NCBI GenBank assembly: GCA_035358815.1
Contig: DAOPQC010000001.1
Location: forward strand, 22,100 to 86,099
Reading direction: 5' to 3'
Source: Thermoanaerobaculales bacterium
Lineage (GTDB): Bacteria; Acidobacteriota; Thermoanaerobaculia; Thermoanaerobaculales; Sulfomarinibacteraceae
Length of the DNA: 64,000 nucleotides
Shown: piece after piece, positions 11,871 to 62,342 of the stretch
Numbering within the stretch: the stretch's first letter is position 1
How the letters are laid out: every line of letters starts with the position of its first letter
Notes under the pieces: generated by a model
Database searches by the model: none
What the model saw: only the letters and a program-made list of their open reading frames with translations
What the model was told of the DNA's origin: nothing
Position numbers and translations under genes: made by a program

Positions 11871-12106
11871 CGCCGCGATCGTAGCAGAGGCAGACCGCTG
11901 CGGTTCACGCTGTTGCTTCCACTCGCTTCCGCGTCCGTGCCCGCTTCCGCACCGCGGTCCTTCGACCCATGAGCCACAGAGCCGTCCAGCCGTCATGGGC
12001 GTCCGGAGCATGGGAAACGTATGATTGATGTGATCCCCAGCGCATGTCCTGCGTGATCGCCTCACGTCTGCTTTCGTGGATCCGCTCCCTTTCGGGAGGT
12101 GTTGCC

Positions 12107-15403: not shown

Positions 15404-15520
15404 CAGCCCCCACCCGCCCAGGATCCAGGATCTGGGGGCGAGGATCGAGCCCCGCCCGCCCGCTCTGGTCACGGTGTAGCCCGCTGGATGAAGCCGGCTC
15501 TTTGCGAAAGCGGTAGCGGG
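15404..15520. repeat. Divergent copy of the GATC-heptamer + GTCACGG(T/C)GTAG module
   Basis: 'CCCCCACCCGCCCAGGATCCAGGATCTGGGGGCGAGGATCGAG...CGCTCTGGTCACGGTGTAGCC' parallels 1825-1875 and 5768-5828. Confidence 0.6.
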
Positions 15521-15555
15521 GCAATGCTCAGCCCCGCTGATGCGGGACGAAGGTC

Positions 15556-15915
15556 TCAGTCGTCCAGCAAGCTCTCCAGAGTCGTCACGAGACCGGGGAG
15601 GTCGACCGCAGCTACGTCCCACACGATGTCGTGGTCGACCGCAGCATAGCCATGGACGAGGCGGTTCCGCATTCCGATGATCTCGCGCCAGGGGACCTGC
15701 GGCAGGTCTCTTCGCGTAGCTTCCGTGACCTTGCTCGCAGCCTCGCCGGTCACCTCGATGAACCGCTCAAGCGCAGCCGCCAGGACCGGATCGGCGTCGA
15801 GATCCTCTCTGCGGCAGTGAGCCACCGCGTTCACCGCACGCCGCGCGTGGTCGAGCATGTCGCGAAGGAGGACGTCGTCCTCAGCCGGCCTCATAAATCG
15901 GTAACGCGTCGACAA
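15556..15915 (-). CDS. hepT: HepT (DUF86, HEPN RNase) toxin of an MntA/HepT toxin-antitoxin pair
   Basis: HEPN Rx4H motif 'RNRLVHGY'. The gene overlaps the upstream nucleotidyltransferase gene. Confidence 0.85.
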   Translation of the reverse strand: MSTRYRFMRPAEDDVLLRDMLDHARRAVNAVAHCRREDLDADPVLAAALERFIEVTGEAASKVTEATRRDLPQVPWREIIGMRNRLVHGYAAVDHDIVWDVAAVDLPGLVTTLESLLDD

Positions 15916-16204
15916 GCACGCGCTGTCGGAAGTGCGGGCTCAGGAAACCCGGTGTGCTGAGGTCCACTTCGCGATCGAAGAGATGGGAGAGCTCATCCTG
16001 GAGGGTGATGAATCGGAGACCGACGCGTTGTCCTGGCAGGAACTCGACGAGCAGGTCGAGGTCACTCTCCGGATCGGAGTCCCCCCGCGCGACTGAGCCG
16101 AACACCGCGAGCCGACGGACGCCGTGCCGCCGGCAGAGCCGCGCCAGTCGCTCCTGATCAACTTTGAAATGCCGGATCGCCATGGCGTCATCATGATACC
16201 CCAT
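15881..16204 (-). CDS. mntA: MntA minimal nucleotidyltransferase antitoxin
   Basis: 'FGSVARGDSDPESDLDLLVEF' (GSxxRG..DxD NTase motif). Alternative start at 16183. Confidence 0.85.
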   Translation of the reverse strand: MGYHDDAMAIRHFKVDQERLARLCRRHGVRRLAVFGSVARGDSDPESDLDLLVEFLPGQRVGLRFITLQDELSHLFDREVDLSTPGFLSPHFRQRVLVDALPIYEAG

Positions 16205-16524
16205 GGCTCTGCGACGGTGGGTTATTGAGCAAGGCCTCGGGTCGCACTTTCGTCCGCTCAGGGGTTAGGGGAAGGGGAGTTGAGGGCAGGGCCCCCGCCC
16301 TCTGTTGTCGCGGCGGAGCCAACGGCGAAGCCGGGAAAACCGAGCCGGATGCCCCCGGTGCCGGGACCGACACATCGGCAATTCCTTTGGAATGGCCGAT
16401 GCTGCAACTGAGGAGCTCTGTGAGTCGTACTCTCGCTTTGGTGGAGTCGGGACGGCCGTGTTGACGACGGCAGCGAGAAATCCTGAGACTCGCACTGTTT
16501 CATCTACGGATGGGGGTTCGGGAT

Positions 16525-17844
16525 ATGAAGAGTACGGCCCTCCGCGGCATTCTCGTGCTTTCGCCGTTGCTGCCGCTGACGGCATGCCTCGCCCCTCAAC
16601 AAGGAACATCCGCCGACGAGAGGATCAGGAATGTCGAGAACGGGCTCGTCAGGTACACGTTTGACGAGAGCTTCACCATGGGCCAGATCGTTGACTTCAA
16701 ACGGATCGACGCCCTTCCGAGATTCAACATTCTGGAGAACATGCAGAACTACAAGGTGCCCGGGGTGAGCGTGGCGGTCATCGACAACTTCAAGATCGCC
16801 TGGACAAAGGCGTATGGAGTGATGGACGCTGGAACGAACAGAGCGGTCACCACGGAAACCATGTTCCAGTCCGGCTCGACCACGAAATTGCTGATGGCGA
16901 TCGTCATCCTGAGAATGGCTGAGGAGGGGAAGCTCGATCTCGACGCCAACATCAATACCTACTTGAAGACTTGGAAGGTCCCCCAGCATCCCTCTGGGAG
17001 GATGGTCACTCTCCGCTTGCTGCTGACCCATCGGGCGGGAATCAACCGTCCGGGAGACGGCTTCGAAACCGAGCCCGGGAGCTCGCCGACCCTCCTGCAG
17101 TTCTTGAAAGGGGAAAGACCGGTCCTCAGCGATGCCGTCTCTTTTGACAACCCGCCGGGGACACGACAGTCCTACTCCAATTTCGGGTACCTCATCATGC
17201 AGTACATGCTTGAGGACCGTTTTCAGACGTCCTTCGCCGAGCTGGTGGAACAGTACGTCTTCAGGCCCTTGAGGCTGGAATCGAGCTTCATCGAGTACCC
17301 CTTTCCACCCCAATACGCCGCCCGGGTCATTCGCCCGCACGATCGAGAGGGGAAGCCCTCTGCGGACGACGGTCTGTATTCGTCGGCACTGGCCCAGGCC
17401 GGAATGATCGCCACTCCGTCCGACTGGGCCAGAATCGCGTGCGAACTGATGCTGGCCTCTGCGGGCCGGTCGGACACTATGCTCTCGCAAGAGTCGGTCA
17501 GGGCCATGTTCCGGACGGAAGCAGATCTCAATCCCGCCGAATTCGAAGGAATCTCCGGCCAGGGGCTGGGCGTGTTCCTCTTCAGTGAGGGGCAACAGCA
17601 GTACTTCCTGCATCACGGGCACAACAGCCCAGGCGCGAATTGCGTCCTCATCGGCTCGCAGACCACGGGGCAGGGGGCCGTCATCATGACCAACGGGATG
17701 AGAGGGATCCCTTTGTCCTATCAGATCGTGTCGTCCATCTCGAAGGAATACGGCTGGGACCAGGACCACGAAGGGATGACGAGGACCGCCGCTTCTCGCC
17801 AGCACGAGTCAACCTCCGCAGACCGAACCTCCGCTGGAGCATGA
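16525..17844 (+). CDS. Beta-lactamase-family serine hydrolase (class C/esterase-like), probable lipoprotein
   Basis: Start at MKSTALRG. Lipobox-like 'LPLTAC'. The SxxK motif is 'SGSTTKLL'. Local GC is lower than in the flanks. Confidence 0.8.
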   Translation: MKSTALRGILVLSPLLPLTACLAPQQGTSADERIRNVENGLVRYTFDESFTMGQIVDFKRIDALPRFNILENMQNYKVPGVSVAVIDNFKIAWTKAYGVMDAGTNRAVTTETMFQSGSTTKLLMAIVILRMAEEGKLDLDANINTYLKTWKVPQHPSGRMVTLRLLLTHRAGINRPGDGFETEPGSSPTLLQFLKGERPVLSDAVSFDNPPGTRQSYSNFGYLIMQYMLEDRFQTSFAELVEQYVFRPLRLESSFIEYPFPPQYAARVIRPHDREGKPSADDGLYSSALAQAGMIATPSDWARIACELMLASAGRSDTMLSQESVRAMFRTEADLNPAEFEGISGQGLGVFLFSEGQQQYFLHHGHNSPGANCVLIGSQTTGQGAVIMTNGMRGIPLSYQIVSSISKEYGWDQDHEGMTRTAASRQHESTSADRTSAGA

Positions 17845-17939
17845 CCGCCGCAGGTGCCGGAACCGACATGTCGGAGTCCTCCGCCGTTCGAGCACAGGAA
17901 CGAAGCGGGAACGAGTGACGCGCGGGTACGACTCGGGCA

Positions 17940-18046
17940 TCCCACGCGCCCCCGCTCCCGCGCCCGCTTCCGCGCCCGTCTCCGATGATGGCCTCGTCGG
18001 TTTCTGAGCGCACTGTCGGGAACGGGGACGGGAACGAACAGGGGCG
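17940..18046. repeat. C-rich/G-rich inverted hexamer arms
   Basis: 'CCCCCGCTCCCGCGCCCGCTTCCGCGCCCGTCTCC' (17950-17985) faces 'GGGAACGGGGACGGGAACGAACAGGGG' (18018-18044). Confidence 0.7.
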
Positions 18047-34303: not shown

Positions 34304-35293
34304 ATGACGACCGCATCCGACCGACGCTGGGTGAGGGACCTCAAGGCGGCGACTGACGTCGACGAGGTCTACGTGGTGCGCAGCAAGGACGTCCGCCAGC
34401 GCCGCGGCGGAGGCCCCTATCTCGCCCTGACCCTCGGCGACCGGACCGGAGAGGTGACCGGGCTGGTCTGGGAGAACGTCGAGCGGATCGGCAAGCTCTG
34501 CGAGGTCGGCCAGGTGCTGCGGGTCCACGGCCAGGTGCAGCGCTACAACCAGCGGCTGCAGGTCGTGGTGCGGGGCGTCGAGCCGTTGGCGGCCGGCGAG
34601 ATCGACCCGGCGCTCTTCGTGCGATCCTCCGAGGTGGATCCTGACATCCTCTGGCAGCAGCTGATGGCCCTGGTCGAGGAGGTCGCCGATCCACACCTCA
34701 AGCAGCTGCTGTTCAGGGTCTTCGCAGACCCGGAGGTGGCGCGACGCTACCGGGCCGCTCCGGCGGCGCGCGGCATGCATCACGCCTTCCGCTCCGGGCT
34801 GCTCGAGCACACGATCTCGATGACGACCACGGCGCGGGCGCTCGCCCGTCACTACCGGCTGCACGAGGACATGGTGGTCGCCGGGGCGCTGCTGCACGAC
34901 CTCGGCAAGATCTGGGAGCTCACCATCGATCCGTCGATCGAGTACACCGACGATGGCCGGCTGCTCGGGCACCTGGCGATGGAGGTGCTGCACGTCGACC
35001 GCACCATCGCGGAGCTGCCCTCGTTCCCCGCGGAGCACCGCCGCCACCTGCTGCACATCCTGCTCTCGCACCACGGGGAGTACGAGTTCGGGTCGCCCCG
35101 CCGTCCCAAGACGCCGGAGGCGCTGCTCGTGCACATGGCCGACAACCTGGACTCGAAGATGGCGGGCATGCTCGAGGCGATCGGAGCGGGAGGGGACGAC
35201 GAGGACGCCTGGTCGGAGTTCTCACGCATCCTCGACCGGTACGTCTACCGCCGCCGGCCGCCGGCGCCGGACAACGGCTCGTCCGGCTCCTGA
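34304..35293 (+). CDS. OB-fold + HD-domain phosphohydrolase (YhaM-like 3'-5' exoribonuclease family)
   Basis: N-terminal OB fold ('YLALTLGDRTGEVTGLVWE') and HD motif 'LLHDLGK ... SHHGEYEFGSP'. Confidence 0.75.
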   Translation: MTTASDRRWVRDLKAATDVDEVYVVRSKDVRQRRGGGPYLALTLGDRTGEVTGLVWENVERIGKLCEVGQVLRVHGQVQRYNQRLQVVVRGVEPLAAGEIDPALFVRSSEVDPDILWQQLMALVEEVADPHLKQLLFRVFADPEVARRYRAAPAARGMHHAFRSGLLEHTISMTTTARALARHYRLHEDMVVAGALLHDLGKIWELTIDPSIEYTDDGRLLGHLAMEVLHVDRTIAELPSFPAEHRRHLLHILLSHHGEYEFGSPRRPKTPEALLVHMADNLDSKMAGMLEAIGAGGDDEDAWSEFSRILDRYVYRRRPPAPDNGSSGS

Positions 35294-35319: not shown

Positions 35320-35500
35320 CGCCCGTTCCCGTACCCGTTCCCGCTTCCGCTTCCGCGCCCGCTTCCGAGGAAGTGACCGGTGAGAGGTGATACGGCCCCC
35401 CCAGCCCGTGCCCCTGCTCGTCACGCCGGAGCCGAAGGCCGCGCCGGATTCCCGCCTGTCACGGCGTAGCCGAAGGCGAAGCCGGATTCCCGACCGGCGA
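35320..35500. repeat. Composite intergenic repeat block
   Basis: 'CCCGTTCCCGTACCCGTTCCCGCTTCCGCTTCCGCGCCCGCTTCC' (35322-35372). Two TCACG(C/G)CG(G/T)AGCCGAAGGC..GCCGGATTCCCG boxes follow (35425-35495). Confidence 0.75.
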
Positions 35501-35734
35501 TCAGGCCTTCGGCCGCAGCCCCCTGATCGCCGCCTCGACCTCGCCCGGTTCCGGGAAGCGCCCGAGGGTGCGCTTGGAGAACACCAGTTCGCCGTCGACC
35601 GTGACGTCGAAGACGCCGCCGCTGCCGCGGATCAGCTCGGCCTGCGCGCCGAGCTCTTTCTGAAGGTCGGCCGCCAGCCCGGCGGCCCGCGGGAGGTAGT
35701 TTCAGGACCCGCAGTACTCGATGGTGATGCGCAT
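35501..35734 (-). CDS. Rdx/SelW-like small thioredoxin-fold selenoprotein; the in-frame TGA at 35702-35704 is read as selenocysteine (CGSU redox motif)
   Basis: Hand translation of the minus strand gives ATG(35734) R I T I E Y C G S TGA N Y L P R A A G L A A D L Q K E L G A Q A E L I R G S G G V F D V T V D G E L V F S K R T L G R F P E P G E V E A A I R G L R P K A stop (35501). 'GGAGGGGAG' lies upstream of the ATG. The CxxU position and 'GGxFxVxVDGxLxxSK..GRFPE' match the Rdx family. The gene is absent from the ORF track because the TGA splits it. Confidence 0.75.
35669..35687 (-). promoter_or_regulatory. Candidate bacterial SECIS stem-loop downstream of the Sec-UGA
   Basis: The mRNA reads UGA-N14-GGCCGCC-GGGCU-GGCGGCC, a perfect 7-bp stem with a G-rich 5-nt apical loop. 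It starts 15 nt after the UGA. Confidence 0.55.
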
Positions 35735-35985
35735 GCTCCCCTCCACTTCGATCCAGACAACAGCGGACGGCGCCGATCCGTTCCCCGTCACGCGCGCCGC
35801 CGGTGGACATCGCAGGTGCTTTCTCATCATGGACTTGTGGCACACGGCCGAGGTGGGGTGCTACGATCGGGGCGGCGGTCCCAACGCCGATGCTCGGAGG
35901 TCCGTACACTCGATGGAGACAGGTGATGACGCCGGGAAAGCTGTGCGTCCTTCCCGCGGCGGGAGAGGACCGGACTGCGGCTGCG

Positions 35986-36561
35986 ATGGATGACCGCGAG
36001 GCGGTGCGTGCCGCGAGGGCCGGCGACGACGACGCGTTCGCTGCGCTGGTCCGGCGCTACTCGGGCGGTCTCCACCGGGCGATCGCCAGGATCCTCGCCG
36101 ACGATGCCGAGGCCTGGGACGTGGTCCAGATGGCCTTCGTGCGCGCCTGGCAGGGCCTCGACCGCTACGACGAGCGATGGAGCTTCTCCACCTGGCTGTA
36201 CCGCATCGGCACCAACCTCGCGATCGACCTGCTCCGCTCGCGGACCAGCCGCGAGAAGGCCCACCGGGCGGGCGCCGAGCACCGTTTCCGGGTCGTCGGT
36301 GAGATGCCTCCGGCCTCGGAGCTCGCCGACCATCGCGAGGTCGACCGCCTGTTCGACGAGCTGGTGGGCTGCTTGACACCGCAGCAGCGCAGCGCCTTCG
36401 TGCTGCGCGAGCTGCAGGGGCTCGACACCGCCGACGTCGCCAAGGCGCTCGGGTGCACGACGACGACGGTGCGCAACCACGTGTTCCAGGCACGCAAGCT
36501 CCTGCGCGAGGAGCTGGCCCGCAGGTTCCCGGAGTACCTGCCGCCGTCACGGAGAGCTTGA
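35986..36561 (+). CDS. ECF (sigma-70 group 4) RNA polymerase sigma factor
   Basis: Region 2 'FAALVRRYSGGLHRAIARIL..AWDVVQMAFVRAW' and region 4 'LTPQQRSAFVLRELQGLDTADVAKALGCTTTTVRNHVFQARKKL'-like. Alternative start at 35926. Confidence 0.85.
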   Translation: MDDREAVRAARAGDDDAFAALVRRYSGGLHRAIARILADDAEAWDVVQMAFVRAWQGLDRYDERWSFSTWLYRIGTNLAIDLLRSRTSREKAHRAGAEHRFRVVGEMPPASELADHREVDRLFDELVGCLTPQQRSAFVLRELQGLDTADVAKALGCTTTTVRNHVFQARKLLREELARRFPEYLPPSRRA

Positions 36562-36562
36562 T

Positions 36563-37069
36563 ATGCGCTGCACCGACATCCCCGATCTGCTCGACGCCTA
36601 CCTGGCGGACACCCTGGATGAGCCCCGCCGCAACGCGGTGCGCGGCCATCTGAGGGCATGCGAGCGCTGCCGGGCGGCGGCGGTCGACGCCGACCCGAGC
36701 CTGCTGTTCGTCGCCGCGGCGCCGGGCCCGCCCGACCCGGTCCGCGTCGAGGACACGGCCCGAGCGGTGATCGCCCAGGTCCGCCAGCAGCGGATGCAGC
36801 GGCGGCTCGGCCACCGCCGGCCCTGGCTGGCGGCCGCTGCCGCGGTGGTGCTGTCGCTGGTCACGGTCGCCGGATGGCGGCTGCTGGCGCCCGGCAGCGG
36901 CCCCGACGACGCGGGCCCGGACGCCGCCCGGGTGGCCGAGACTCCCAGCCCGCCGCCCCGGATCGAGGTCGACATGGCCGGCGAAGGGGTCCGCGTCTAC
37001 CAGTACGCAGACCAGCAGGACTCGGACACGGCAGTCACCTTCATCGTCAACCCCGAGCTGGAGCTGTGA
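36563..37069 (+). CDS. Anti-sigma factor (zf-HC2 type, single TM)
   Basis: It starts 2 nt after the sigma gene stop. N-terminal 'H-x3-C-x2-C' ('RGHLRACERCRAA') and one TM segment ('WLAAAAAVVLSLVTVAGW'). Confidence 0.7.
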   Translation: MRCTDIPDLLDAYLADTLDEPRRNAVRGHLRACERCRAAAVDADPSLLFVAAAPGPPDPVRVEDTARAVIAQVRQQRMQRRLGHRRPWLAAAAAVVLSLVTVAGWRLLAPGSGPDDAGPDAARVAETPSPPPRIEVDMAGEGVRVYQYADQQDSDTAVTFIVNPELEL

Positions 37070-37072
37070 TCC

Positions 37073-37789
37073 ATGGCCCGCCACCTGACAGTGCTGATGG
37101 TGCTTCTCTCGCTGGCCGCCGGGGCGCCGGCCCTGTGGGCGAGCGAGCCGACCACGGTCCGGGTCTTCCAGGTCCGCCACTGCGCGGTCACCGAGGTGGC
37201 GGCTGCCGTGCAGAAGCTCTTGACCGAGGACGGAAGCCTCACCGTCCACCCGCGCCAGTCGCGGATCACGGTCCAGGATCGTCCCGAGGTCGTGGCCGCC
37301 GCCGCCGAGATGATCGCGAAGATGGACCGCTCGCCGGACCGCTACCTGATCGAGGTGGTGCTGCTGCAGGGCGTGGCCCAGGAGCTCCCTCCCGGCCAGC
37401 AGGCGCCGGTCGACGCGCGGCTGAAGCGGATGTTCCCGTTCGTCGCCTACCGCCGCATCGGTGCCACGAGCTTCGACGGCGTCATGGGCGACCCGGCGTC
37501 CGCCGACCTCGGCGAGGGCCACCGAGTGTCCTTCCTGGCGAGCTCGCTGGGGATCAGCGACGACACCCCCTGGGGCATCCCCGACACCGCCAACCGGGTC
37601 CACCTGCAGTGGCTGACCCTGCATCGGCTCACGACCGATCGGACGGGCAAGCAGCGGTCGGTGGAGATCCTGAGAACGAGCGTGTTCCTGTCCGAGAAGC
37701 AGGAGGTGTTCATCGGCGCCGGCGCGTCCGAGGACTCGAGCCAGGGCCTGGTGCTGATCCTCCAGGCGCACGAGATCGGGGGCGACTAG
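37073..37789 (+). CDS. Periplasmic protein with a secretin N-domain-like module
   Basis: Signal peptide. 'VRVFQVRHCAVTEVAAAVQKLLTEDGSLTVHPRQSRITVQDRPEVVAAAAEMIAKMD' resembles secretin N1/STN-type domains. The gene is tightly packed between the anti-sigma gene and gspF. Confidence 0.5.
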   Translation: MARHLTVLMVLLSLAAGAPALWASEPTTVRVFQVRHCAVTEVAAAVQKLLTEDGSLTVHPRQSRITVQDRPEVVAAAAEMIAKMDRSPDRYLIEVVLLQGVAQELPPGQQAPVDARLKRMFPFVAYRRIGATSFDGVMGDPASADLGEGHRVSFLASSLGISDDTPWGIPDTANRVHLQWLTLHRLTTDRTGKQRSVEILRTSVFLSEKQEVFIGAGASEDSSQGLVLILQAHEIGGD

Positions 37790-38998
37790 TTGCCCGAGTT
37801 CCTCTGTCGGATCGGCTCCCCGGACGGCTCGGTGCTCGAGCTGCGACGGGTCGCCGTGTCGATGGAGGCTGTGCAGCGGGAGCTGGAGAGCGAGGGCTTC
37901 CACGTCTTCAGCGTCGGCCGCGCCAGGTCCCGGCTCCGCGTGCCGCTGGTGTCGCGGGCCGAGAAGGTCCCGTCGCAGGACTTCCTGCTCTTCAACACCC
38001 AGCTGCGCACCCTGCTTCGCGCCGGCCTGCCGCTCGCCCAGTCGCTCGAGCTGCTCAAGGCGCAGCAGACGCACCCCCACTTCCGCGTCCTGCTCGACAA
38101 GGTCCACCAGCAGGTGACGACCGGGGTGTCGCTGTCCGACGCCTTCCTGTCGCTGGGCGACGTCTTCCCGAAGCTCTACGCCAACTCGCTGCGCGCCGGC
38201 GAGCGGTCGGGCGACCTCGAGAGCGTGATCGGGCGCTTCGTCCAGTATCAGCGCCTGGTCGAGTCGGTCCGCAAGAAGATCGTCGCCGCCCTGACCTACC
38301 CGGCGGTCCTGGTCGCGCTCGCGGTGGCCCTGGTGGTGCTGCTGGTGGCCTACGTGATCCCGAGGTTCTCGGACTTCTACACCCAGTTCGGGTCCGAGCT
38401 CCCGCTGCCGACCCGGATCGTGCTCGGGGTCGCACACACGGTCGAGAGCAACCTGATCCTGATTATCGTCGGCGGGGGGCTGGCGATCTGGGGCTTCCGG
38501 GCCTGGAAGGCGTCGCCGGCCGGCCGGCGGGTGGTCGATCGCTGGACGCTCCGGCTGCCGCTCCTGGGACGGCTCGCCCAGCAGTTCGCCCTGTCCCAGT
38601 TCACGCGCTCGCTGGCGGTGCTGCTGCATGGCGGCACCCCGATGGTGCCGGCGCTCGAGACGGCGGCGACGTCGGTGAAGAACGTCTACATTTCCGAGCT
38701 GTTCCTCGGCTGCGTCCGGGAGGTGCAGGAGGGGCGGCCGCTGTCCGACGCGCTCGAGGACACCGGCCGGGCCCCGGGCCTCGCCCTGGCCATGATCCGG
38801 GTCGGCGAGTCCACCGGAGCGCTGCCCGAGATGCTCGAGCACACCTCCAACTTCTTCGACGAGGAGATCGAGTTCTCCCTGACCCGGATCACCACCCTGT
38901 TCGAGCCGATGATCCTGGTGTTCATGGGCATCGTCATTGCGGGCCTGCTGCTGGCCGTCTACTATCCGCTGCTCAGGCTCGTGTCGACGATCGCGTGA
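37790..38998 (+). CDS. gspF: Type II secretion / type IV pilus platform protein (GspF/PilC family)
   Basis: TTG start. 402 aa with two T2SSF repeats and three TM segments. Confidence 0.85.
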   Translation: MPEFLCRIGSPDGSVLELRRVAVSMEAVQRELESEGFHVFSVGRARSRLRVPLVSRAEKVPSQDFLLFNTQLRTLLRAGLPLAQSLELLKAQQTHPHFRVLLDKVHQQVTTGVSLSDAFLSLGDVFPKLYANSLRAGERSGDLESVIGRFVQYQRLVESVRKKIVAALTYPAVLVALAVALVVLLVAYVIPRFSDFYTQFGSELPLPTRIVLGVAHTVESNLILIIVGGGLAIWGFRAWKASPAGRRVVDRWTLRLPLLGRLAQQFALSQFTRSLAVLLHGGTPMVPALETAATSVKNVYISELFLGCVREVQEGRPLSDALEDTGRAPGLALAMIRVGESTGALPEMLEHTSNFFDEEIEFSLTRITTLFEPMILVFMGIVIAGLLLAVYYPLLRLVSTIA

Positions 38999-39005
38999 GG
39001 TAGCC

Positions 39006-40649
39006 ATGGCGACAGATCCCACACTGGACCGGACGCTGGTCATGCTCGATGAGCAGGACGCGACCGAGGTCCACGACGACGTGGCCGAGGCCCGCGCCCT
39101 GGCTGCGCGGATCGGCCTCCCGTTCGATCCCCTCGACGAGTTCCACATCGATCCCGAGCTGTTCCGCGCGATCCCGGTCGAGGTGATGCTGCGCTACCAG
39201 TTCCTGCCGCTCGCGTCGGACGGCGAGGTCCTGCGGGTGGTGATGGCGGACCCATCGAACGTGGTCCAGCTCAACGAGGTGGAGCTGGCGCTGGCGCGTC
39301 CGCTCGACGTGCTGGTGGGGCCGCCGACGCGGATCGCGGACATCCTCGAGAAGTCGGAGTCGACGCAGCGCGTGCTCGACGAGGCGACGGAAGGCTTCCA
39401 GCTGCAGCTGGTCCAGGAGGCGGAGGACGGCGAGGAGGTGCTGTCAATCGACCGGATCACCGCCGACTCGTCGCCGATCATCCGGCTGGTCGACTCGGTG
39501 CTCTTCAACGCCATCCAGCGCAGGGCCTCGGACATCCACATCGAGACCCAGGACCGCGAGGTGGTGGTCAAGTACCGGATCGACGGCGTGCTCTACCAGG
39601 CCATGAAGTCGATCGACAAGCGCCACCACTCGACCATCATCTCCCGGATCAAGGTGATGTCCGAGCTCGACATCGCCGAGAAGCGGATCCCCCAGGACGG
39701 CCGCTTCAAGGTGCGCTTCTCCGGCCGGACGATCGACTTCCGGGTGTCGATCATGCCCAACGTGCACGGCGAGGACGCGGTCATCCGGATCCTCGACAAG
39801 GAGTCCACCAACGCCGAGTTCCGGACCCTGAACCTGAGCGTGCTCGGGCTCGAGGAGGACACCAAGGCCCAGCTCCGGAAGTTCATCCGGGAGCCCTACG
39901 GAATGGTGCTGGTCACGGGGCCGACCGGGTCGGGCAAGACGACCACCCTCTACGCCTGCCTGTCCGAGATCCAGTCCTCCGAGGACAAGATCATCACCAT
40001 CGAGGACCCGGTCGAGTACCAGCTCAAGGGCATCACCCAGATCCCGGTGAACGAGAAGAAGGGGCTCACCTTCGCCCGCGGCCTGCGGTCGATCCTCCGC
40101 CATGACCCCGACAAGATCATGGTCGGAGAGATCCGTGACGAGGAGACGGCGGCGATCGCCGTGCAGTCGGCGCTGACCGGCCACCTGGTGTTCACCACGG
40201 TGCACGCCAACAACGTGGTCGATGTCATCGGCCGCTTCCTCAACATGAACGTCCACCTCTACAACTTCGTGTCCGCCCTGAACTGCGTGCTGGCGCAGCG
40301 GCTGGTGCGTCGAATCTGCGTCCACTGCAAGCGCCCGGCGACCGTTTCCGACCAGCTGCTCGACGACTCCGGGCTGGAGCCCGCCCGCTACCGCGACTTC
40401 GTCTTCTACGAGGGCGCCGGGTGCATCGAGTGCAACGGCACCGGCTACCGGGGGCGGCTCGCGATCGCCGAGCTGCTCAACCTGTCGGACAACATCCGGC
40501 AGCTGATCATCGACCACCGGTCGGCGGCCGAGATCAAGCGCGCCGCCAAGGCCGAGGGCATGCGCTTCCTGCGCGAGTCGGCGCTCCAGAAGGTCTTCGC
40601 CGGGGAAACCACGCTCCATGACATCAACAAGGTGACCTTCGTGGAATGA
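39006..40649 (+). CDS. gspE: Type II secretion / type IV pilus assembly ATPase (GspE/PilB family)
   Basis: The ATG at 39006 lies inside ORF 38937..40649. T2SSE_N domain, Walker A 'GPTGSGKTTT', a tetracysteine motif ('CVHCKRP...CIECNGTGYRGR') and 'TGHLVFTTVHAN'. Confidence 0.9.
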   Translation: MATDPTLDRTLVMLDEQDATEVHDDVAEARALAARIGLPFDPLDEFHIDPELFRAIPVEVMLRYQFLPLASDGEVLRVVMADPSNVVQLNEVELALARPLDVLVGPPTRIADILEKSESTQRVLDEATEGFQLQLVQEAEDGEEVLSIDRITADSSPIIRLVDSVLFNAIQRRASDIHIETQDREVVVKYRIDGVLYQAMKSIDKRHHSTIISRIKVMSELDIAEKRIPQDGRFKVRFSGRTIDFRVSIMPNVHGEDAVIRILDKESTNAEFRTLNLSVLGLEEDTKAQLRKFIREPYGMVLVTGPTGSGKTTTLYACLSEIQSSEDKIITIEDPVEYQLKGITQIPVNEKKGLTFARGLRSILRHDPDKIMVGEIRDEETAAIAVQSALTGHLVFTTVHANNVVDVIGRFLNMNVHLYNFVSALNCVLAQRLVRRICVHCKRPATVSDQLLDDSGLEPARYRDFVFYEGAGCIECNGTGYRGRLAIAELLNLSDNIRQLIIDHRSAAEIKRAAKAEGMRFLRESALQKVFAGETTLHDINKVTFVE

Positions 40650-41557
40650 GCTGGGCACGCTTCCTCATCAGTCCGCCGCCGACCACGAGCTGGATCCTCG
40701 ACGGCTCGGTGGTCGCGGCGATCCGGCGCGAGCCCAGGGGCGGCGTCCTGTGGGCCGCCGAGGCGACTCCGCCCGGGTCGTTCGAGGTCGGCCCGGTCGG
40801 CCTGCAAGCGGTCGACCGCCGCAAGCTGGTCGCGGCGCTCGGCTCGATCCACGGCCGCCTCGAGGGCGCGCGCCGTGCGGCCGTGGTGGTGCCCACCGGC
40901 TGGACGCGGAGCTACGTGCTCTCCTTCCAGGATCTGCCCCGCCGGCAGCGCGAGATCGAGCAGGTCGTGCAGTGGCGGCTGAAGAAGCTGCTGCCGGCGC
41001 CGCCGTCGGAGCTGAGGATGTCGCTCGTGAACCTGGCGCCGACCGACGGTGCCCGGCCCATGCTCGTGATGGTGGCGATGGAGCGCGCGCTGTCAGAGCT
41101 CGAGGCAGCGTTCCGGGAGGTCGGGGTCGAGCTCGGCCTGATCACCGGCCAGATCTTCGCGCTCGCCGCCGCCTCCGCACCGGGGACGCGGCTGCTGGTG
41201 CAGCAGGAGCAGGGCTTCCTGAGCCTGCACCTGTCCGAAGGCGACGACCTGCGGCTGATCAGGACCAAGCACCTCGCGTCGTCGGGCCGGGTGGGCGAGG
41301 CCGTCCGGCGGGAGCTCAACCTCACGCTGGGCTACATCCGCGAGACCCTCGGCGTGCCCGGGGAGCTCGGCATCGAGGTGTTCGCCGACAGCGCCGTGCT
41401 CGAGCGGGAGATCGAGGACTGGCGCTTGATGCAGCCCGGCGTGACGAGGCTGCCCGAGCGGCCGGCACCGCCCTTCACGGTGGCCGGTGCGGAGGGCCGC
41501 CTCGGCCAGGCGCGGATCCAGCCGCTGTGGGCGGTGATCGCGGAGGCCCACCCGTGA
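40646..41557 (+). CDS. PilM/GspL-like (actin-fold) assembly protein
   Basis: 4-nt overlap with gspE. Its position and ~300-aa size match PilM. The sequence similarity is only loosely PilM-like. Confidence 0.55.
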   Translation: MSWARFLISPPPTTSWILDGSVVAAIRREPRGGVLWAAEATPPGSFEVGPVGLQAVDRRKLVAALGSIHGRLEGARRAAVVVPTGWTRSYVLSFQDLPRRQREIEQVVQWRLKKLLPAPPSELRMSLVNLAPTDGARPMLVMVAMERALSELEAAFREVGVELGLITGQIFALAAASAPGTRLLVQQEQGFLSLHLSEGDDLRLIRTKHLASSGRVGEAVRRELNLTLGYIRETLGVPGELGIEVFADSAVLEREIEDWRLMQPGVTRLPERPAPPFTVAGAEGRLGQARIQPLWAVIAEAHP

Positions 41558-42126
41558 TGACGCCGAACCTCGCCGAGCGCCCCTTCCTCAACACCCGCCC
41601 GGTGTGGCTGGTCGCGGCGGCGGCCGGCGCGCTGGCGCTGGCGCTGATCGTCGCCAACGCCGTCTCCTTCGTGTACACCGGCAGCACCCTGGCGCCGCTC
41701 GTCGAGCGCCGCGACCAGCTGGTGGTCGAGGAGCGGGCGCTCGTCGCCAGGCTGTCGGGCCTGGTGACGGACCTGTCCAAGGTCCCCTGGAGATCGCTGG
41801 GGGCGCGGATCGACGCCACCAACGTCATCCTGCGCGAGCACAACTTCTCCTGGCTCGCGATGCTCGATGACGTGGAGCGGGTGATGCCGTACGACGTGCG
41901 GATCGTCCAGATCTCTCCCGACGTTGGTCCGGCCGAGGTCGACCTGAACCTGAGGGTGATCGCGAAGACCCGCGAGGCGATGATCGAGTTCCTGGAGAAC
42001 CTGGTCTCCGATCCGAGCTTCTCGAGGCCGACCCCACAGTCCGAGACCACGCCCGAGCAGTCGCAGTCGGGCTCGTATCAGATGTCACTCAGCGTGCGCT
42101 ACCACCCGCCGAAGGAGTCGTCGTGA
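41557..42126 (+). CDS. PilN-like bitopic inner-membrane protein
   Basis: The ATG overlaps the upstream stop (GTGATGA). N-terminal 'NLAERPF' followed by a TM segment, as in PilN/fimbrial assembly proteins. Confidence 0.65.
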   Translation: MTPNLAERPFLNTRPVWLVAAAAGALALALIVANAVSFVYTGSTLAPLVERRDQLVVEERALVARLSGLVTDLSKVPWRSLGARIDATNVILREHNFSWLAMLDDVERVMPYDVRIVQISPDVGPAEVDLNLRVIAKTREAMIEFLENLVSDPSFSRPTPQSETTPEQSQSGSYQMSLSVRYHPPKESS

Positions 42127-42878
42127 CCGTGGACCTGCGTCCGTGGCGGCGCCTGCTGCCGGTCTGGCTCCCGGCGGTCGGGCTGTGCCTGATCGCCGCC
42201 GCCGCCTACGTCTGGCAGAGCTCCGCGTCGGGAGGCCGCGCCGCTGGCGTGCGCGCCGAGATCGACGAGCTCGAGACCGAGATCGGCCGCCTGCAGGGCC
42301 TCCTCGCCCAGGTTGAGGGCGAGCGGGCGACGGTGGCGAGCGTCAACGAGACCTTCGACCTGCTGTACGGCAAGGTCTTCCGGAGCCTCGACGATCGTCT
42401 GACCAACATCCTCCGGGAGGTCGGCCTGGCGACCAGGAGCGCCGGCCTGCTGCCGGGCGCCTACAAGTACCAGGCCGAGGAGGACAAGAAGACCGGGTAC
42501 GTGAGGTTCTCGATCGTGTTCTCGGTGAACGGCCAGTACGCGCAGATGCGGCAGCTGATCGCCGCGATCCAGTCGAGCCCGGAGTTCCTGGTCGTCGAGG
42601 GGATCGCGTTTTCCGGGGATGAGCAGGCGGCCACCCAGGAGCTGATGATCGCGGTGAGGGTCGCCACCTATCTCTCCGAGGCCAGCCGGGAGACGCTCGA
42701 CCGACTGACGGGGGGCATTCGCCAGGCGGCCGCCGCCGATGCCGCGGCGACGCCTGACGGTGATGCCCAGGCGGCGCCGGGTGGCGAGCCGCCCGCGGCC
42801 GGCGGCGGTGATGCCCGGGTGACCCCAGATGGCGAAGCTCAAGTGACCGGGGAAGTCGATGCCGAATCCGAAGGATAG
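42123..42878 (+). CDS. PilO/GspM-like bitopic inner-membrane protein
   Basis: 4-nt overlap. TM segment, then a coiled coil 'EIDELETEIGRLQGLLAQVE', then a ferredoxin-like C-terminal part. Confidence 0.6.
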   Translation: MTVDLRPWRRLLPVWLPAVGLCLIAAAAYVWQSSASGGRAAGVRAEIDELETEIGRLQGLLAQVEGERATVASVNETFDLLYGKVFRSLDDRLTNILREVGLATRSAGLLPGAYKYQAEEDKKTGYVRFSIVFSVNGQYAQMRQLIAAIQSSPEFLVVEGIAFSGDEQAATQELMIAVRVATYLSEASRETLDRLTGGIRQAAAADAAATPDGDAQAAPGGEPPAAGGGDARVTPDGEAQVTGEVDAESEG

Positions 42879-43449
42879 CCGGGGCCGCGTGGCGCTGCTG
42901 GTCGGCCTGATGGTCGTCCTGGGGGCGGTGGTCGTCGTGCAGCTGCTGCGCGATCGCAGCGCGGTCAGCCGCGGCCTGTCGGACAAGCGGATCACCTACG
43001 AGGCCCACTCCCTGTCGCCGTTGGAGCCGCTCGAGCCTCGCGGCGACACCGGCAGTGCGGAGTTCCGCAGGAACCCGTTCATCTATGGGGTGCCGCCGAC
43101 CGCCACGCCGCGGCCGGTCACGCCGCTGCCGACGCGACCCCCGGTGCAGAGGACGCCACAGCCGACGCCGACGCCGCGCATGGCTCGCGGCGCTGACGGC
43201 AGGCCCAAGCCGCCGCCGCCGCCGTTCGATCGTGAGTTCCTCGGCCACTTCGGCCCCCTGAGGATGCAGGTCGCTGCGTTCCGCAGGCCGGGGCTGTCGC
43301 CGGAGCTCTCCGAGATCGAGGTCGCGAAGGTGGGCGACGTGCTCGACGGCATCTTCATCGTTCGCGAGATAGGATTGGAGTCGGTCAAGATCGGCTTCGT
43401 GGGCTATGACCCGTCGGAGGACACCCGTGTTCCGTTGTCTGAGAACTGA
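42859..43449 (+). CDS. PilP/GspC-like membrane-anchored, proline-rich periplasmic protein
   Basis: TM segment, Pro-rich linker and a small C-terminal beta domain. Its position is immediately before the secretin gene. Confidence 0.45.
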   Translation: MPNPKDSRGRVALLVGLMVVLGAVVVVQLLRDRSAVSRGLSDKRITYEAHSLSPLEPLEPRGDTGSAEFRRNPFIYGVPPTATPRPVTPLPTRPPVQRTPQPTPTPRMARGADGRPKPPPPPFDREFLGHFGPLRMQVAAFRRPGLSPELSEIEVAKVGDVLDGIFIVREIGLESVKIGFVGYDPSEDTRVPLSEN

Positions 43450-45850
43450 CGCTCCGGCGTTCCGGATCGCCGTCCTTGGCGCGCTGCTGGCCGCCGCCGT
43501 CGGCTGCTCGACCCAGCAGGCCGCGCAGGCCAGCAAGGAGGCGGTCAAACACGAGAACTGGGACGCCGCCGTCTACCACTACCTCGAGCTGGTGGCGAAG
43601 GAGCCGGAGAACCTCGAGTACCGGATCGGGCTCCGGCGCGCCCGCCAGAACGCCGCCCACGTCCACTTCCAGCGCGGCGTTGCCCTCCGCGACGCCGGTC
43701 GGGTGGTCGAGGCTCGCGACGAGGTCCAGATGGCGGTCCAGCTCGACCCGACCCACCAGTTCGCGGAGCAGGTCCTCGACGGCCTCAACAAGGAGATCGA
43801 GATCCTCTCCGGTCCCGGCGGCAAGGGCGAGCTCGAGGACCTGAAGCGCCAGGCCCGCGAGGCGAAGGTGAAGCCGCCGGTCCTCGACCCGGCGTCCAAG
43901 GAGCCGGTCACCCTGGTGTTCCCCAGCCCGAAGCCGGTCAAGGAGATCTACGACGCCATCGGCAAGGCGTACGGCTTCAACGTGATCTTCGATCCCAAGC
44001 TGAAGGACGACCGGCTCCCGGTCGAGCTGCGCGACGTCACCGCCGAGCGGGCGCTCGAGATCGTGATGCAGGCGGCCGGCCACTTCTACAAGGTGCTCGA
44101 CCCGAAGACGATCATCGTCGCCGAGGACAACCCGCAGAACCGGCGCGACTACGAGGACCTGGTCATCAAGACCTTCTTCCTGTCGAACGCCGACGTCAAG
44201 GAGGTCGACAAGCTGCTGCGCTCCTTGATCGAGGCGCGGCGGCTCTCGACCAACGAGCAGCTCAACGCGATCACGCTGCGCGACACCGCCGACAAGGTCG
44301 CGATCGCCGAGAAGCTGATCACGGTCAACGACAAGGCCAAGGCCGAGGTGCTGGTGGATGTCGAGCTGATGGAGGTCGACACCGGGGACCAGTCCGAGAT
44401 CGGGATGAGCCTCTCCACCTACAGCTTCATCCTGGCCGCCGACACGGCGCAGACCAGCCCGGACGCGCCGGAGGGCAGTTCCTTCCTGGACGACCTGTCG
44501 AACATCGCCCGCGAGAACGTGTTCATCAACGTGCCGTCGGTGACCATCAACCTCGTCAAGTCGAGCGGCAAGGCGTCGATCCTCGCCCAGCCGCAGCTGC
44601 GGATCACCGAGGGCGAGAAGGCCTCGCTGCACCTCGGCGACCGGGTGCCGATCCCGGTGACCTCTTTCAACACCTCGAACACCATCGGCGGCAACGTGGT
44701 GCCGATCACCTCCTTCCAGTACCAGGACATCGGCATCAAGATCGAGGTCGAGCCGCGGGTCCACCACAACCGTGAGGTCACGCTCAAGCTGACGGTCGAG
44801 GTCTCGCAGCTCGGCGACACCGTGCAGGTCGGTCCGGGTCAGGAGGCGGTGACGATCGGGACCCGCACCATCACCTCGGTGATCCGGCTGCGCAGCGGCG
44901 AGTCGAGCCTGCTGGCCGGCCTGATCCGCAAGGACACGACCTCCGGCTCGACCGAGATCCCGCTGCTGTCGGACATCCCGTACCTCGGCCGGCTGTTCAC
45001 CAACACCAAGAAGCAGACCAAGACCACCGATCTGGTGCTGACCCTGACCCCGCACATCATCCGCTTCCCGGCGATCGAGGAGGAGGACCTGGCGCCGGTC
45101 TGGGTGGGCACCGAGAGCCGGATCTCCTTCTTCGGCTCGAGCTCGCCGCGCGTGCAGTCCGGGACCTCGCCGCAGGGGCCGTTCGACTCGGGCGGTGAGG
45201 ACTACCAGGGCGACCAGGGCGAGAAGCCGTCCGAGGGCTCGGGGGAGGACGCGCCGGCGCCCTACGGCGTCCGCGGCCGGTCGGTCAGCCCGCGGCGGGT
45301 GACGCCGCCAACCGGTGACACCGGGGGCGTCGAGCTGGTTCCCAGGGGCGACAGCCGCGACACCTGGCCCGGGGATGACGGCGCGCCGCAGCAGCAGGCC
45401 GAGGAGACCAAGGCAGCGGCCGTGGTCGATGACAGCCGGCCACCGCTCATCATCGGCCTCGAGCCGGCGGTGGCGGCGCTGCCCAGCGGGAGCGAGATCG
45501 TGCTCCAGCTGGTGGTGAAGGGCGCGCCGGGCTCGTACCGGCTGCCGCTGGGCCTGTCGTTCGATCCGGGACGGGTGACCGTGCAGTCTTTCGAGCCGGC
45601 GCCCGGCGTCAACGTCATGGAGGGCAGCATCGAGCTCGACAACGGCTGGATGTCTCTCGACCTGGTGGTGCCGGCGGCCGACGACGGCGCTCGTGCCATC
45701 GGTGCGATCACGGTGCGGGCAGAGGCGCCCGGCCCGGTTCCCCTGGCCTTCACCTCGCCCGGCGCGACCATGTCCGACGGCACGGTGCTGCCGGTGGCGG
45801 CGAGCGACGGCGCGGTCTTCGTGTCCGCGGCCGGGGAGGGCGGGGGCTGA
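43406..45850 (+). CDS. Secretin (GspD/PilQ family) with an N-terminal lipoprotein-TPR module and a C-terminal cohesin-like extension
   Basis: 'LLAAAVGCS' lipobox. TPR-like helices occupy residues ~40-130. The canonical secretin C-domain runs 'ILAQPQLRITEGEKASLHLGDRVPIP...IPLLSDIPYLGRLF'. A ~250-aa tail follows. The start is uncertain because it overlaps the upstream gene. Confidence 0.85.
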   Translation: MTRRRTPVFRCLRTDAPAFRIAVLGALLAAAVGCSTQQAAQASKEAVKHENWDAAVYHYLELVAKEPENLEYRIGLRRARQNAAHVHFQRGVALRDAGRVVEARDEVQMAVQLDPTHQFAEQVLDGLNKEIEILSGPGGKGELEDLKRQAREAKVKPPVLDPASKEPVTLVFPSPKPVKEIYDAIGKAYGFNVIFDPKLKDDRLPVELRDVTAERALEIVMQAAGHFYKVLDPKTIIVAEDNPQNRRDYEDLVIKTFFLSNADVKEVDKLLRSLIEARRLSTNEQLNAITLRDTADKVAIAEKLITVNDKAKAEVLVDVELMEVDTGDQSEIGMSLSTYSFILAADTAQTSPDAPEGSSFLDDLSNIARENVFINVPSVTINLVKSSGKASILAQPQLRITEGEKASLHLGDRVPIPVTSFNTSNTIGGNVVPITSFQYQDIGIKIEVEPRVHHNREVTLKLTVEVSQLGDTVQVGPGQEAVTIGTRTITSVIRLRSGESSLLAGLIRKDTTSGSTEIPLLSDIPYLGRLFTNTKKQTKTTDLVLTLTPHIIRFPAIEEEDLAPVWVGTESRISFFGSSSPRVQSGTSPQGPFDSGGEDYQGDQGEKPSEGSGEDAPAPYGVRGRSVSPRRVTPPTGDTGGVELVPRGDSRDTWPGDDGAPQQQAEETKAAAVVDDSRPPLIIGLEPAVAALPSGSEIVLQLVVKGAPGSYRLPLGLSFDPGRVTVQSFEPAPGVNVMEGSIELDNGWMSLDLVVPAADDGARAIGAITVRAEAPGPVPLAFTSPGATMSDGTVLPVAASDGAVFVSAAGEGGG

Positions 45851-45851
45851 G

Positions 45852-46325
45852 ATGATCCGCCACCTGCACCGCCGCCGCAGCGAGAGGGGCTTCACGCTCG
45901 CTGAGCTGGTGATGGTCGCGGCGCTGATCGCGGTCCTCTCAACGATGGCCCTGCCGGTGGCCAAGTTCACCGTCAAGCGCCGCAAGGAGGCCGAGCTGCG
46001 GCTCGCGCTGCGGCTGATGCGCAACGCCATCGACGAGCACAAGCGCCTGTCCGACCAGGGCTTGATCCCGTTGACCCTGGGTGGCGAGGGCTACCCGGAG
46101 GACCTCGACGTGCTGGTGGAGGGCGTCGACCTGGTGGGGCAGGAGACCAAGCGCCGCTTCCTGCGCCGCATCCCGTGGGACCCGATGACCGGAGAGCAGG
46201 AGTGGGGCAAGCGGTCCTACCAGGACGACCCCGACTCTGACAGCTGGGGGAGCGAGAACCTCTACGACGTGTACTCGTTGTCGGACGGCACCGCCATCGA
46301 CGGCACGAAGTACAAGGACTGGTGA
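45852..46325 (+). CDS. GspG-like pseudopilin (prepilin-type N-terminal cleavage/methylation domain)
   Basis: ATG at 45852. The leader is 'MIRHLHRRRSERG|FTLAELVMVAALIAVL'. Confidence 0.8.
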   Translation: MIRHLHRRRSERGFTLAELVMVAALIAVLSTMALPVAKFTVKRRKEAELRLALRLMRNAIDEHKRLSDQGLIPLTLGGEGYPEDLDVLVEGVDLVGQETKRRFLRRIPWDPMTGEQEWGKRSYQDDPDSDSWGSENLYDVYSLSDGTAIDGTKYKDW

Positions 46326-46861
46326 GCATGAACATCCCGGATATCGGACTCGGGACCGCGGCCCTCCGCCGGGCGACCGCGAGCGAGCCCTGGGGCCCCG
46401 CCTCCGCCGGTCGCGGGCCGTCCGTCAGTCCGCGGCCCCCCGCCCGCGGCCGCCGGGCCGGCGGGTTCACGCTGATCGAGCTGATGGTCGTGGTCGCGAT
46501 CATCGGCATCCTCGCGGTGGTGGCGCTGCCGGCGATGCGGACGGCGCCCCTCAAGGCCCGCGAGGCGGTGCTCAAGGCCGACCTCTACCAGATCCGGTCA
46601 TGCATCGACCAGTACCTCGGCGACAAGGGCGAGTACCCGGAGTCGCTGCAGGGCCTGGTCGATGCCGGGTACCTGCGCTTCGTGCCGGTCGACCCGATCA
46701 CCCGGTCGGCCGACACCTGGGTCGAGCTCGAGGCCACGCCGACCGAGACCGAGGACCTCGAGCCGATCGAGGAGGACCTCGGCGGCACGGTGGGCATCAT
46801 CGACGTCAAGTCGGGGGCCGACGGAGTCGCCCTTGACGGCACGCTCTACTCGGACTGGTAA
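46322..46861 (+). CDS. gspG: GspG-like major pseudopilin with an unusually long predicted leader
   Basis: 'G|FTLIELMVVVAIIGILA' lies 46-48 codons after the only upstream in-frame starts (GTG 46322, ATG 46328). The C-terminal part, 'YPESLQGLVDAGYLRFVPVDPIT', is GspG-like. Confidence 0.7.
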   Translation: MSMNIPDIGLGTAALRRATASEPWGPASAGRGPSVSPRPPARGRRAGGFTLIELMVVVAIIGILAVVALPAMRTAPLKAREAVLKADLYQIRSCIDQYLGDKGEYPESLQGLVDAGYLRFVPVDPITRSADTWVELEATPTETEDLEPIEEDLGGTVGIIDVKSGADGVALDGTLYSDW

Positions 46862-60449: not shown

Positions 60450-60450
60450 G

Positions 60451-62322: not shown

Positions 62323-62342
62323 GGCTCCCCCCCTCGATGAAG

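Follow-up and report, generated by a model that had tools for sequence, protein, structure and literature searches.

Bacterial SECIS elements lie inside the coding region and are read by SelB, whereas those of eukaryotes lie in the 3′ UTR and are read by SBP2/eEFSec. In the fdhF gene of E. coli, the SECIS is a 17-nt upper stem-loop located 11 nt after the UGA, the loop of which carries G23 and U24, with G23 contacting SelB (PMC8659212). The SelW-like proteins with a CxxU motif are a long-known and very abundant family of prokaryotic selenoproteins, recognised as such two decades ago (PMC1088965, PMC2398784, PMC1794560). In the GOS data, 427 Sec (selenocysteine) forms of these proteins stand against 56 Cys forms (PMC2398784), and the small number of Cys homologues has been taken to suggest that Sec is the ancestral state (PMC1794560). 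In the Rdx family the exposed loop after β1 is the seat of the redox-active CxxC (PMC3527542), and even for characterised members of the family the function is unclear (PMC1088965).

In the present study we describe a SelW-like gene from an uncultured acidobacterium, found in a stretch of 64,000 nucleotides with a GC content of 70.5%, the whole of which we refer to as the window. The gene is genuine, ordinary and already known, in that its family has dedicated NCBIfam models and the gene itself an NCBI call.

Gene architecture and family assignment

The gene and its signals are arranged as follows.

35736..35744, minus strand: Shine–Dalgarno sequence GGAGGGGAG (from the sequence; GGAG core at the equivalent site in the related loci L001–L003)
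35732..35734, minus strand: start codon ATG (118/156 relatives have ATG or GTG at codon −10, counted from the UGA)
35501..35734, minus strand: gene for a SelW-like selenoprotein of the Rdx family; 77 codons and a stop, codon 11 being an in-frame UGA (translation, Pfam/NCBIfam matches, NCBI call)
35711..35713, minus strand: Cys8 codon TGC, the resolving Cys of CxxU (Cys in 156/156 distinct relatives)
35702..35704, minus strand: codon 11, UGA, with selenocysteine as the predicted residue (163/164 homologous genes have TGA here; four identical assemblies)
35669..35687, minus strand: SECIS hairpin GGCCGCC-GGGCU-GGCGGCC (within the R-A-A-G-L-A-A codons; covariation at synonymous sites)
35501..35503, minus strand: true stop codon, also TGA (translation; TGA ends 17/27 long window ORFs)

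A first-pass annotation of this DNA had proposed an unannotated 77-codon gene on the minus strand with TGA as codon 11 and a strong Shine–Dalgarno sequence before the ATG. The read-through translation from 35734 to 35501, i.e. MRITIEYCGS, the in-frame TGA, NYLPRAAGLAADLQKELGAQAELIRGSGGVFDVTVDGELVFSKRTLGRFPEPGEVEAAIRGLRPKA and the stop, is identical with the one quoted there, and the Shine–Dalgarno sequence is indeed found at 35744..35736. The gene is missing from a mechanical list of ORFs because an ORF of 40 amino acids would need an ATG, GTG or TTG closer behind the TGA than any that is present. Two contigs from JGI, a MAG contig from NCBI and a contig from ENA, i.e. four independent assemblies, show 100% identity over this stretch, so that the TGA is no sequencing error. 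The description ‘unannotated’ fits the identical DNA as called by JGI and ENA, where the 77-codon gene is missing, but not the NCBI copy (GCA_035387295.1, DAOONO010000003.1; L166 4198–4431, minus strand), in which a 77-residue product had already been called at exactly the gene's position. Versions of the protein with X, C or W for the UGA codon had no exact match in the protein collection. This is a textbook example of a selenoprotein gene that is missed by stop-codon-naive ORF finders and recovered by the NCBI pipeline.

For profile scans of the window protein, U was replaced by C. The protein scored 73 bits with the Pfam Rdx profile PF10262 (cut-off 22.6 bits, E = 2e-20), 58.5 bits with NCBIfam TIGR02174 (CXXU_selWTH; cut-off 34.2 bits) and 93.4 bits with NF041051, the SelT/SelW/SelH family (seleno)protein equivalog (cut-off 88 bits). 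Its sequence also matched the PDB entries 2fa8, 3dex, 2obk, 2p0g and 2npb, and the best SelW match among the GTDB species representatives was 68% identical. As a stand-in for the structure of the window protein we used the AF2 model of P0001 (pLDDT 88.7), a homologue that is 77% identical by BLASTP. By Foldseek, this model superimposed on 2fa8, 2oka, 3dex, 2ojl, 2obk and 2p0g with TM scores of 0.84–0.88 and an rmsd of about 1 Å, and its CxxU occupies the end of β1 (residues 2–8) and the loop ahead of α1 (residues 14–28); in the window protein this redox motif is C8-G-S-U11. With three profiles above their cut-offs and an invariant Cys, the Rdx/SelW layout with CxxU suggested earlier is borne out, and the gene product is, by profile and predicted fold, a SelW-like member of the Rdx family.

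The in-frame UGA and its coding context

We compared the gene with 160 further loci, drawn in equal parts (80 each) from the genomes of GTDB species representatives and from metagenomes, which together with L001–L003 and the window gene give a total of 164 genes. These data clearly show that the TGA is conserved, being present at the homologous codon in 163/164; the one exception (L072) has CGA, and Cys, which the first-pass annotation had considered alongside Sec for this site, is encoded there in none. The hosts include Acidobacteriota (Holophagae, Thermoanaerobaculia and Vicinamibacteraceae), Myxococcota, Desulfobulbaceae/Desulfopila (among them the isolate D. aestuarii DSM 18488), Planctomycetota, Gemmatimonadota, Verrucomicrobiales, Fibrobacterota and others. 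The sequence ahead of the TGA is also constrained, with Cys at codon −3 in 156/156 relatives, Ile at −6 in 155/156 and Tyr at −4 in 149/156. Across these 156 relatives the third codon position varies most, upstream as well as downstream of the TGA, and no in-frame stop occurs in codons −10 to −1 of any of them. Judged by this pattern of substitution, codons 1–10, which precede the TGA, have evolved under coding constraint; this had been named beforehand as one of two points on which the proposed gene would stand or fall.

Database entries for this family seem to favour another reading, namely that there is no SelB/SECIS decoding and either the organism reads TGA as Trp or Gly or the product starts downstream of the TGA. 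The three closest full-length database proteins (P0001–P0003) have ‘W’ at the UGA site, and P0001 and P0002 additionally end in a W. In an exhaustive search of 1.84 billion representatives with the post-TGA part as the query, which returned 702 relatives, we inspected 36 full-length representatives and found W for the TGA in 26, a true CxxC in nine and no motif in one, whereas most other entries are calls that start after the TGA. However, the DNA of P0001–P0003 has TGA at the W sites, which means that these JGI calls were translated under a TGA=Trp code, and the 26 cases are the same TGA-as-W artefact; the gene itself ends in TGA, and the terminal W of P0001 and P0002 is a spurious product of that stop. 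In the window, long ORFs end in TGA more often than in either other stop codon (17/27) and TGG serves as the Trp codon 182 times, i.e. the window uses the standard genetic code. With regard to a downstream start, there is no ATG, GTG or TTG close after the TGA in the window, such a start would remove β1 together with the invariant Cys, and the truncated database calls begin at differing, non-homologous positions. Stop-codon usage and N-terminal conservation thus contradict both a reassigned code and a downstream start, which we consider effectively refuted and to which we would assign next to no probability. Many database homologues of the gene are either 5′-truncated or mistranslated with Trp.

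The nine true CxxC forms, which have Cys in the UGA column, are more distant (45–58% identity). As far as these comparisons go, Sec and Cys forms both exist, and the near relatives of the window gene are all predicted Sec forms. Taken with the conservation of the codon, this points to an in-frame TGA that almost certainly encodes selenocysteine. We also searched the window for further genes with an in-frame TGA or a CxxU/UxxC motif and found no candidate; a match at 37067 was merely two adjacent genes in one frame.

Selection on the hairpin downstream of the UGA

The earlier reading had also drawn attention to a perfect 7-bp stem 15 nt after the UGA, and GGCCGCC (35687..35681), GGGCU (35680..35676) and GGCGGCC (35675..35669) do form such a stem-loop at 35687..35669. 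With the U of the UGA as nt 1, the hairpin spans nt 18–36, its first nucleotide being the 15th after the UGA. The energy of the hairpin alone is −14.9 kcal/mol, and perfect hairpins of at least 7 bp at equal spacing are found at 1.1–1.3% of arbitrary positions in the 70.5%-GC window. Shuffled sequences fold locally no worse (z = +0.88), the single-sequence MFE fold favours a slightly shifted register, and an Rfam scan of the whole window gave no match at the gathering threshold, be it to a bacterial SECIS or to a tRNA-Sec family. Viewed in one sequence alone, the hairpin is modestly above chance and is suggestive, not decisive.

The comparative evidence is overwhelming. A gap-free alignment of 156 distinct TGA-anchored sequences has the consensus hairpin GCCGCC-GGUCU-GGCGGC, in which three of the stem pairs are formed by third-codon positions only (Arg3/Ala3, Ala3/Ala3 and Ala3/Leu3). 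Pair 21–33 is paired in 156/156 sequences by means of six types of pair (CG 119, UA 17, GC 9, UG 7, GU 2 and AU 2), and pair 24–30 likewise in 156/156 by means of four (CG 147, GC 6, UA 2 and UG 1). Under a codon null, in which the peptides were fixed and the codons redrawn according to the GC3 of each gene, each wobble pair would be expected to be paired in approximately 42% of sequences, and 21–33 and 24–30 jointly in 17%; under the same resampling, the loop U27 has an expected frequency of 15%, as against 92% observed. In an analysis of 148 distinct rows, paired cells amount to 88.3%, compared with 78.8% in shuffles, and the covariation score of 0.244 (0.072 in shuffles) was reached by 0/500 shuffles. 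Slid registers pair to 23–56%, as against 88% in the true register, and RNAalifold found the same helix independently. In addition, amino acid changes at pair 22–32 are coupled, Ala to Ser (UCC) occurring with Ala to Glu or Gly (GAA/GGG). With synonymous covariation in 156/156 sequences and replacements coupled so as to keep the pairs, this is an unusually clean picture of a SECIS within a coding region. On this comparative reading the hairpin is a conserved SECIS, i.e. an RNA element under selection, and the SECIS-like hairpin of the first-pass annotation can be said to covary and to lie at the right distance from the UGA.

Two Cys-form genes served as controls. In L169 the peptide RAASLAA is kept and all three wobble pairs are G.G mismatches, whereas L168 has a perfect hairpin in register. 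The latter may be a fossil SECIS or may fall within the chance tail, as AAGLAA in GC-rich codons can form the stem without a UGA.

The loop of the window hairpin, GGGCU, is a minority variant present in 12/156 sequences, mostly from its own clade, the consensus being GGUCU. This variant bears on a further explanation, according to which the hairpin aids read-through of the UGA with insertion of a residue other than Sec, either Cys, by a SelC* tRNA(Cys) and possibly a second SelB, or the residue carried by an acidobacterial allo-tRNA acting as opal suppressor. δ-Proteobacteria have a SelC* tRNA(Cys) that reads the opal Sec codon of selD as Cys, and allo-tRNAs, possible nonsense suppressors, have been found in Acidobacteria (PMC5389517); moreover, the DNA alone does not reveal whether Sec or Cys is inserted where a SECIS acts on a UGA. 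However, SelC* genes have been reported from Firmicutes, Thermodesulfobacteria, Nitrospirae and Proteobacteria, not in Acidobacteria, and always together with a complete Sec system (PMC5389517), and the window contains no SelC*-like tRNA or allo-tRNA. As the very close relative L002 has the loop GGUCU, the GGGCU variant, shared with L001 and L007, appears to be a tolerated polymorphism and gives no sign of changed decoding. Were Cys inserted, a plain TGC would be simpler, yet TGA is kept in 163/164 genes. We regard insertion of a residue other than Sec as unsupported by the present data and extremely unlikely, and retain Sec as the predicted residue at codon 11.

Locus context, proposed mechanism and comparison with known systems

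The features flanking the gene are as follows.

34304..35293, plus strand: convergent neighbour with OB-fold and HD domain, of the YhaM-like 3′–5′ exoribonuclease family (PF01336, PF01966; NF010007 with E = 1e-46, below cut-off)
35759..35784, minus strand: candidate promoter-like motif of the ECF type, GGAAC-N18-GTT, 50 nt ahead of the ATG (from motif comparison)
35926..36561, plus strand: divergent ECF sigma factor (Pfam Sigma70_r2/r4_2/ECF on the JGI call; NCBIfam TIGR02937)
36563..37069, plus strand: anti-sigma factor of the zf-HC2 type, cotranscribed with the preceding sigma gene (JGI call with PF13490; NCBIfam anti-sigma models below cut-offs)

The HD/OB-fold neighbour is identical at the protein level on at least 24 contigs, including an 862-kb JGI contig and the NCBI MAG GCA_035387295.1. 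The gene is part of a syntenic block with the order mfd, SurA-like PPIases, HD/OB, selW, ECF sigma, zf-HC2 anti-sigma, secretin-N, T2SS-F and PilB, which is shared by the Holophagae MAG L007 (neighbour proteins 64–94% identical) and by other Acidobacteriota/Thermoanaerobaculales MAGs (L015, L006 and L008). This synteny identifies the host as an acidobacterium. All four of these MAGs keep the TGA at the syntenic locus, which indicates that the TGA is maintained at an orthologous locus. The adjacency of selW and the ECF sigma gene is kept in L001, L002, L007, L015, L006, L008, L087 and L084.

The GGAAC/GTT motif is found at −50/−51 in the window and in L001, L002 and L007, with a spacer that varies. 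Situated beside an ECF sigma/anti-sigma pair, the motif suggests stress-responsive regulation of the gene. No matching ECF-type motif, which might have been a sign of autoregulation, was found upstream of the divergent sigma gene, nor was a sigma-70-type promoter found in the gene region; scanning for sigma-70 promoters and intrinsic terminators gave no useful result. It is conceivable, although in our view rather doubtful, that the SelW-like selenoprotein is the output of a thiol/selenol-stress module, with an ECF-type promoter under the control of the divergent ECF sigma and zf-HC2 anti-sigma factors, by analogy with SigR–RsrA and the thioredoxin genes. If true, this would provide the first regulatory and physiological handle on the family in bacteria.

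We also looked for the genes of Sec insertion. ARAGORN found no tRNA, and hence no tRNA-Sec, in the 64-kb window and no tRNA-Sec in 60 related loci; a 96-nt ‘tRNA-Gly’ in L027, which matched nothing in Rfam, is probably spurious. A tblastn search with E. coli SelD as an approximate query gave no match in the window or in 1.6 Mb of related loci, and the sole AIRS-family ORF of the window (57849–58907) is PurM, with 390 bits as against 29 bits for SelD. Overall, none of selA, selB, selC and selD was found within the window or the flanks of the relatives, and none of the other window genes is selenium-related. Such a result might be expected if the gene were a relic, i.e. if the Sec machinery had been lost, so that translation ends after ten residues in a pseudogene that has not yet decayed, and loss both of the Sec trait and of single selenoproteins, SelW-like ones included, is documented in bacteria (PMC1794560). 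However, absence from 64 kb is uninformative for a multi-megabase genome, and the ORF, the Shine–Dalgarno sequence, the Cys8 codon and the perfect 7/7-bp SECIS are all intact. The sequence is also identical in the four assemblies from different samples, and syntenic orthologues whose neighbour proteins are 64–94% identical have kept not only the TGA but also the hairpin and the constraint on the coding sequence. We consider a relic very unlikely and favour a functional selenoprotein gene. It is reasonable to infer that the organism has selA, selB, selC and selD and an active Sec system, as the first-pass annotation had supposed; Acidobacteria are known to contain selenoproteins (PMC1794560).

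In our proposed mechanism, the gene very probably encodes a 77-residue SelW-like (Rdx-family) thiol/selenol oxidoreductase with SECIS-driven insertion of Sec at UGA codon 11. Translation would begin at the ATG at 35734, and on reaching the UGA at codon 11 the ribosome would meet the mRNA hairpin 14 nt downstream (nt 18–36), which would work as a bacterial SECIS. The SECIS would recruit SelB-GTP-Sec-tRNA(Sec), leading to selenocysteine in place of termination, and read-through would then proceed to the real TGA stop at 35503..35501. In the protein, Cys8 and Sec11 in the β1–α1 loop may form a reversible selenenylsulfide, the most likely role of which is in reducing or sensing an oxidised thiol substrate. 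The integrity of the gene, its family and fold, the conservation of the UGA, the coding constraint on both sides of it and the selection on the hairpin are established by the data above; the dependence on SelB and tRNA(Sec) and the redox chemistry of the product are what we infer from them.

In a wider context, the gene indicates, at the level of sequence, that UGA is decoded as Sec in an uncultured acidobacterium, and it adds acidobacterial examples to a widespread family. Neither the gene nor its SECIS data change current understanding.

The closest known systems are the prokaryotic SelW-like selenoproteins (PF10262, formerly PF05169; TIGR02174; NF041051), with which the window protein has in common a length of approximately 75 residues, a CxxU directly after β1, the motifs GGxF[DE]V..DG and GRFPE, and a UGA-encoded Sec with a SECIS just downstream in the coding region. 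In the family at large and among the relatives of the window gene alike, Sec forms far outnumber Cys forms. The first-described hosts were marine, δ-proteobacterial and clostridial, whereas the present host is an uncultured acidobacterium, and the SECIS loop of the window is the minority GGGCU; nothing essential differs.

The solved Cys-form homologues Atu0228 (2fa8), SAV_2001 (3dex), PA/Q9HYQ7 (2oka), 2ojl, 2obk and 2p0g have the same fold, with 26–42% identity to the P0001 model and sequence matches to the window protein with E values down to 9e-12, and their redox motif is in the same loop. They differ in having CxxC, in being approximately 25–30 residues longer and in needing no SECIS. Mouse SelW (2npb) and MIEN1 (2ljk) also have the Rdx fold, with CxxU (SelW) or CxxC (MIEN1) in the exposed loop after β1 (PMC3527542), but these mammalian proteins are distant from the window protein (E = 0.007, TM 0.64).

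With regard to the RNA element, the SECIS of E. coli fdhF is alike in being a hairpin within the ORF that follows directly on the UGA and has G-U in a small loop at its apex; in our alignment the consensus of this loop is GGUCU. In contrast with fdhF, there is no equivalent of the bulged U17, the spacing to the UGA is 14 nt instead of 11 nt, and the window has G in place of the loop U. The loop G26-U27 corresponds to the G23-U24 of fdhF moved 3 nt, i.e. exactly one codon, further from the UGA.

Database renderings of the selenocysteine codon and homologues lacking it

The codon matching the predicted Sec UGA of the SelW-like gene (35501-35734, minus strand) has been rendered as tryptophan in the homologous database proteins P0001-P0003, and the same is true of 26 of the 36 full-length representatives that we inspected (e.g. 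P0017, P0019 and P0030). In some public metagenome gene calls of this family the terminal TGA is also rendered as tryptophan, and the majority of the other database entries are 5'-truncated. These Trp-for-UGA and 5'-truncated calls are a systematic annotation artefact for the SelW-like family in protein collections.

Two loci encoding Cys-form homologues were examined at the position of the SECIS. The locus L168, which encodes the CxxC protein P0130, has TGC at the codon and carries a perfect 7-bp hairpin (GGCGGCC-GGCCU-GGCCGCC, approximately nt 999-1017) in the SECIS register, a candidate fossil SECIS after a recent Sec-to-Cys switch. At L169, which encodes the Cys-form P0027, all three wobble pairs of the SECIS stem are gone. 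Among the 164 genes compared at the Sec-homologous codon, the sole one without TGA is that of a Phycisphaerae MAG (L072), in which CGA (Arg), a single substitution away from TGA, gives the motif CTQR instead of CxxU; this gene may be an inactivated copy, or may reflect an assembly or sequencing error.

Sequences flanking the selenoprotein gene

An ECF-type promoter-like motif, GGAAC-N18-GTT, was observed at 35759-35784 (minus strand), 50-51 nt 5' of the selenoprotein ATG. The GGAAC and GTT elements are kept, with a spacer of varying length, in the window and the three closest relatives (L001, L002 and L007). The motif adjoins a divergent operon, and a search upstream of its sigma gene for a matching ECF-type motif found none.

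35926-37069 (+), divergent ECF sigma / zf-HC2 anti-sigma operon

On the other side of the gene, immediately 3' of its stop codon, the convergent intergenic region holds two copies of GGGAATCCGGCnnnGCCTTCGGCT (35430-35453 and 35468-35491, minus strand), placed 38 nt apart. These are the only two in the window, against a chance expectation of 0.01. No canonical terminator was seen in this intergenic region.

Other features of the window and of a related locus

Two stretches of the window, at approximately 12000-18000 and 60000-64000, have a clearly reduced GC content (62-66% vs approximately 72%) and could represent islands that were acquired by horizontal transfer or are related to defence.

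12044-15403, 1119-aa LVIVD-repeat protein (first stretch)
16510-17844, beta-lactamase-family protein (first stretch)
61180-62361 (-), IrrE/M78 peptidase with HTH regulator (second stretch)
62534 onward, continuing past the window end, ResIII/SNF2-type helicase (second stretch)

In the Acidobacteriota MAG locus L027, ARAGORN called a 96-nt 'tRNA-Gly(gcc)' at 4081-4176 (plus strand). This element had no Rfam tRNA match and its fold consists of generic GC-rich hairpins; the call is thus most likely spurious, rather than an allo-tRNA.

Directly downstream of the sigma/anti-sigma pair lies a type IV pilus / type II secretion-like cluster (37073-46861, plus strand), comprising a secretin-N protein, a T2SS-F (PilC-like) protein, a PilB/GspE ATPase, a PilM-like ORF and the two members listed below.

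43373-45850 (+), large secretin
46241-46861 (+), prepilin

This cluster is syntenic in related Acidobacteriota.
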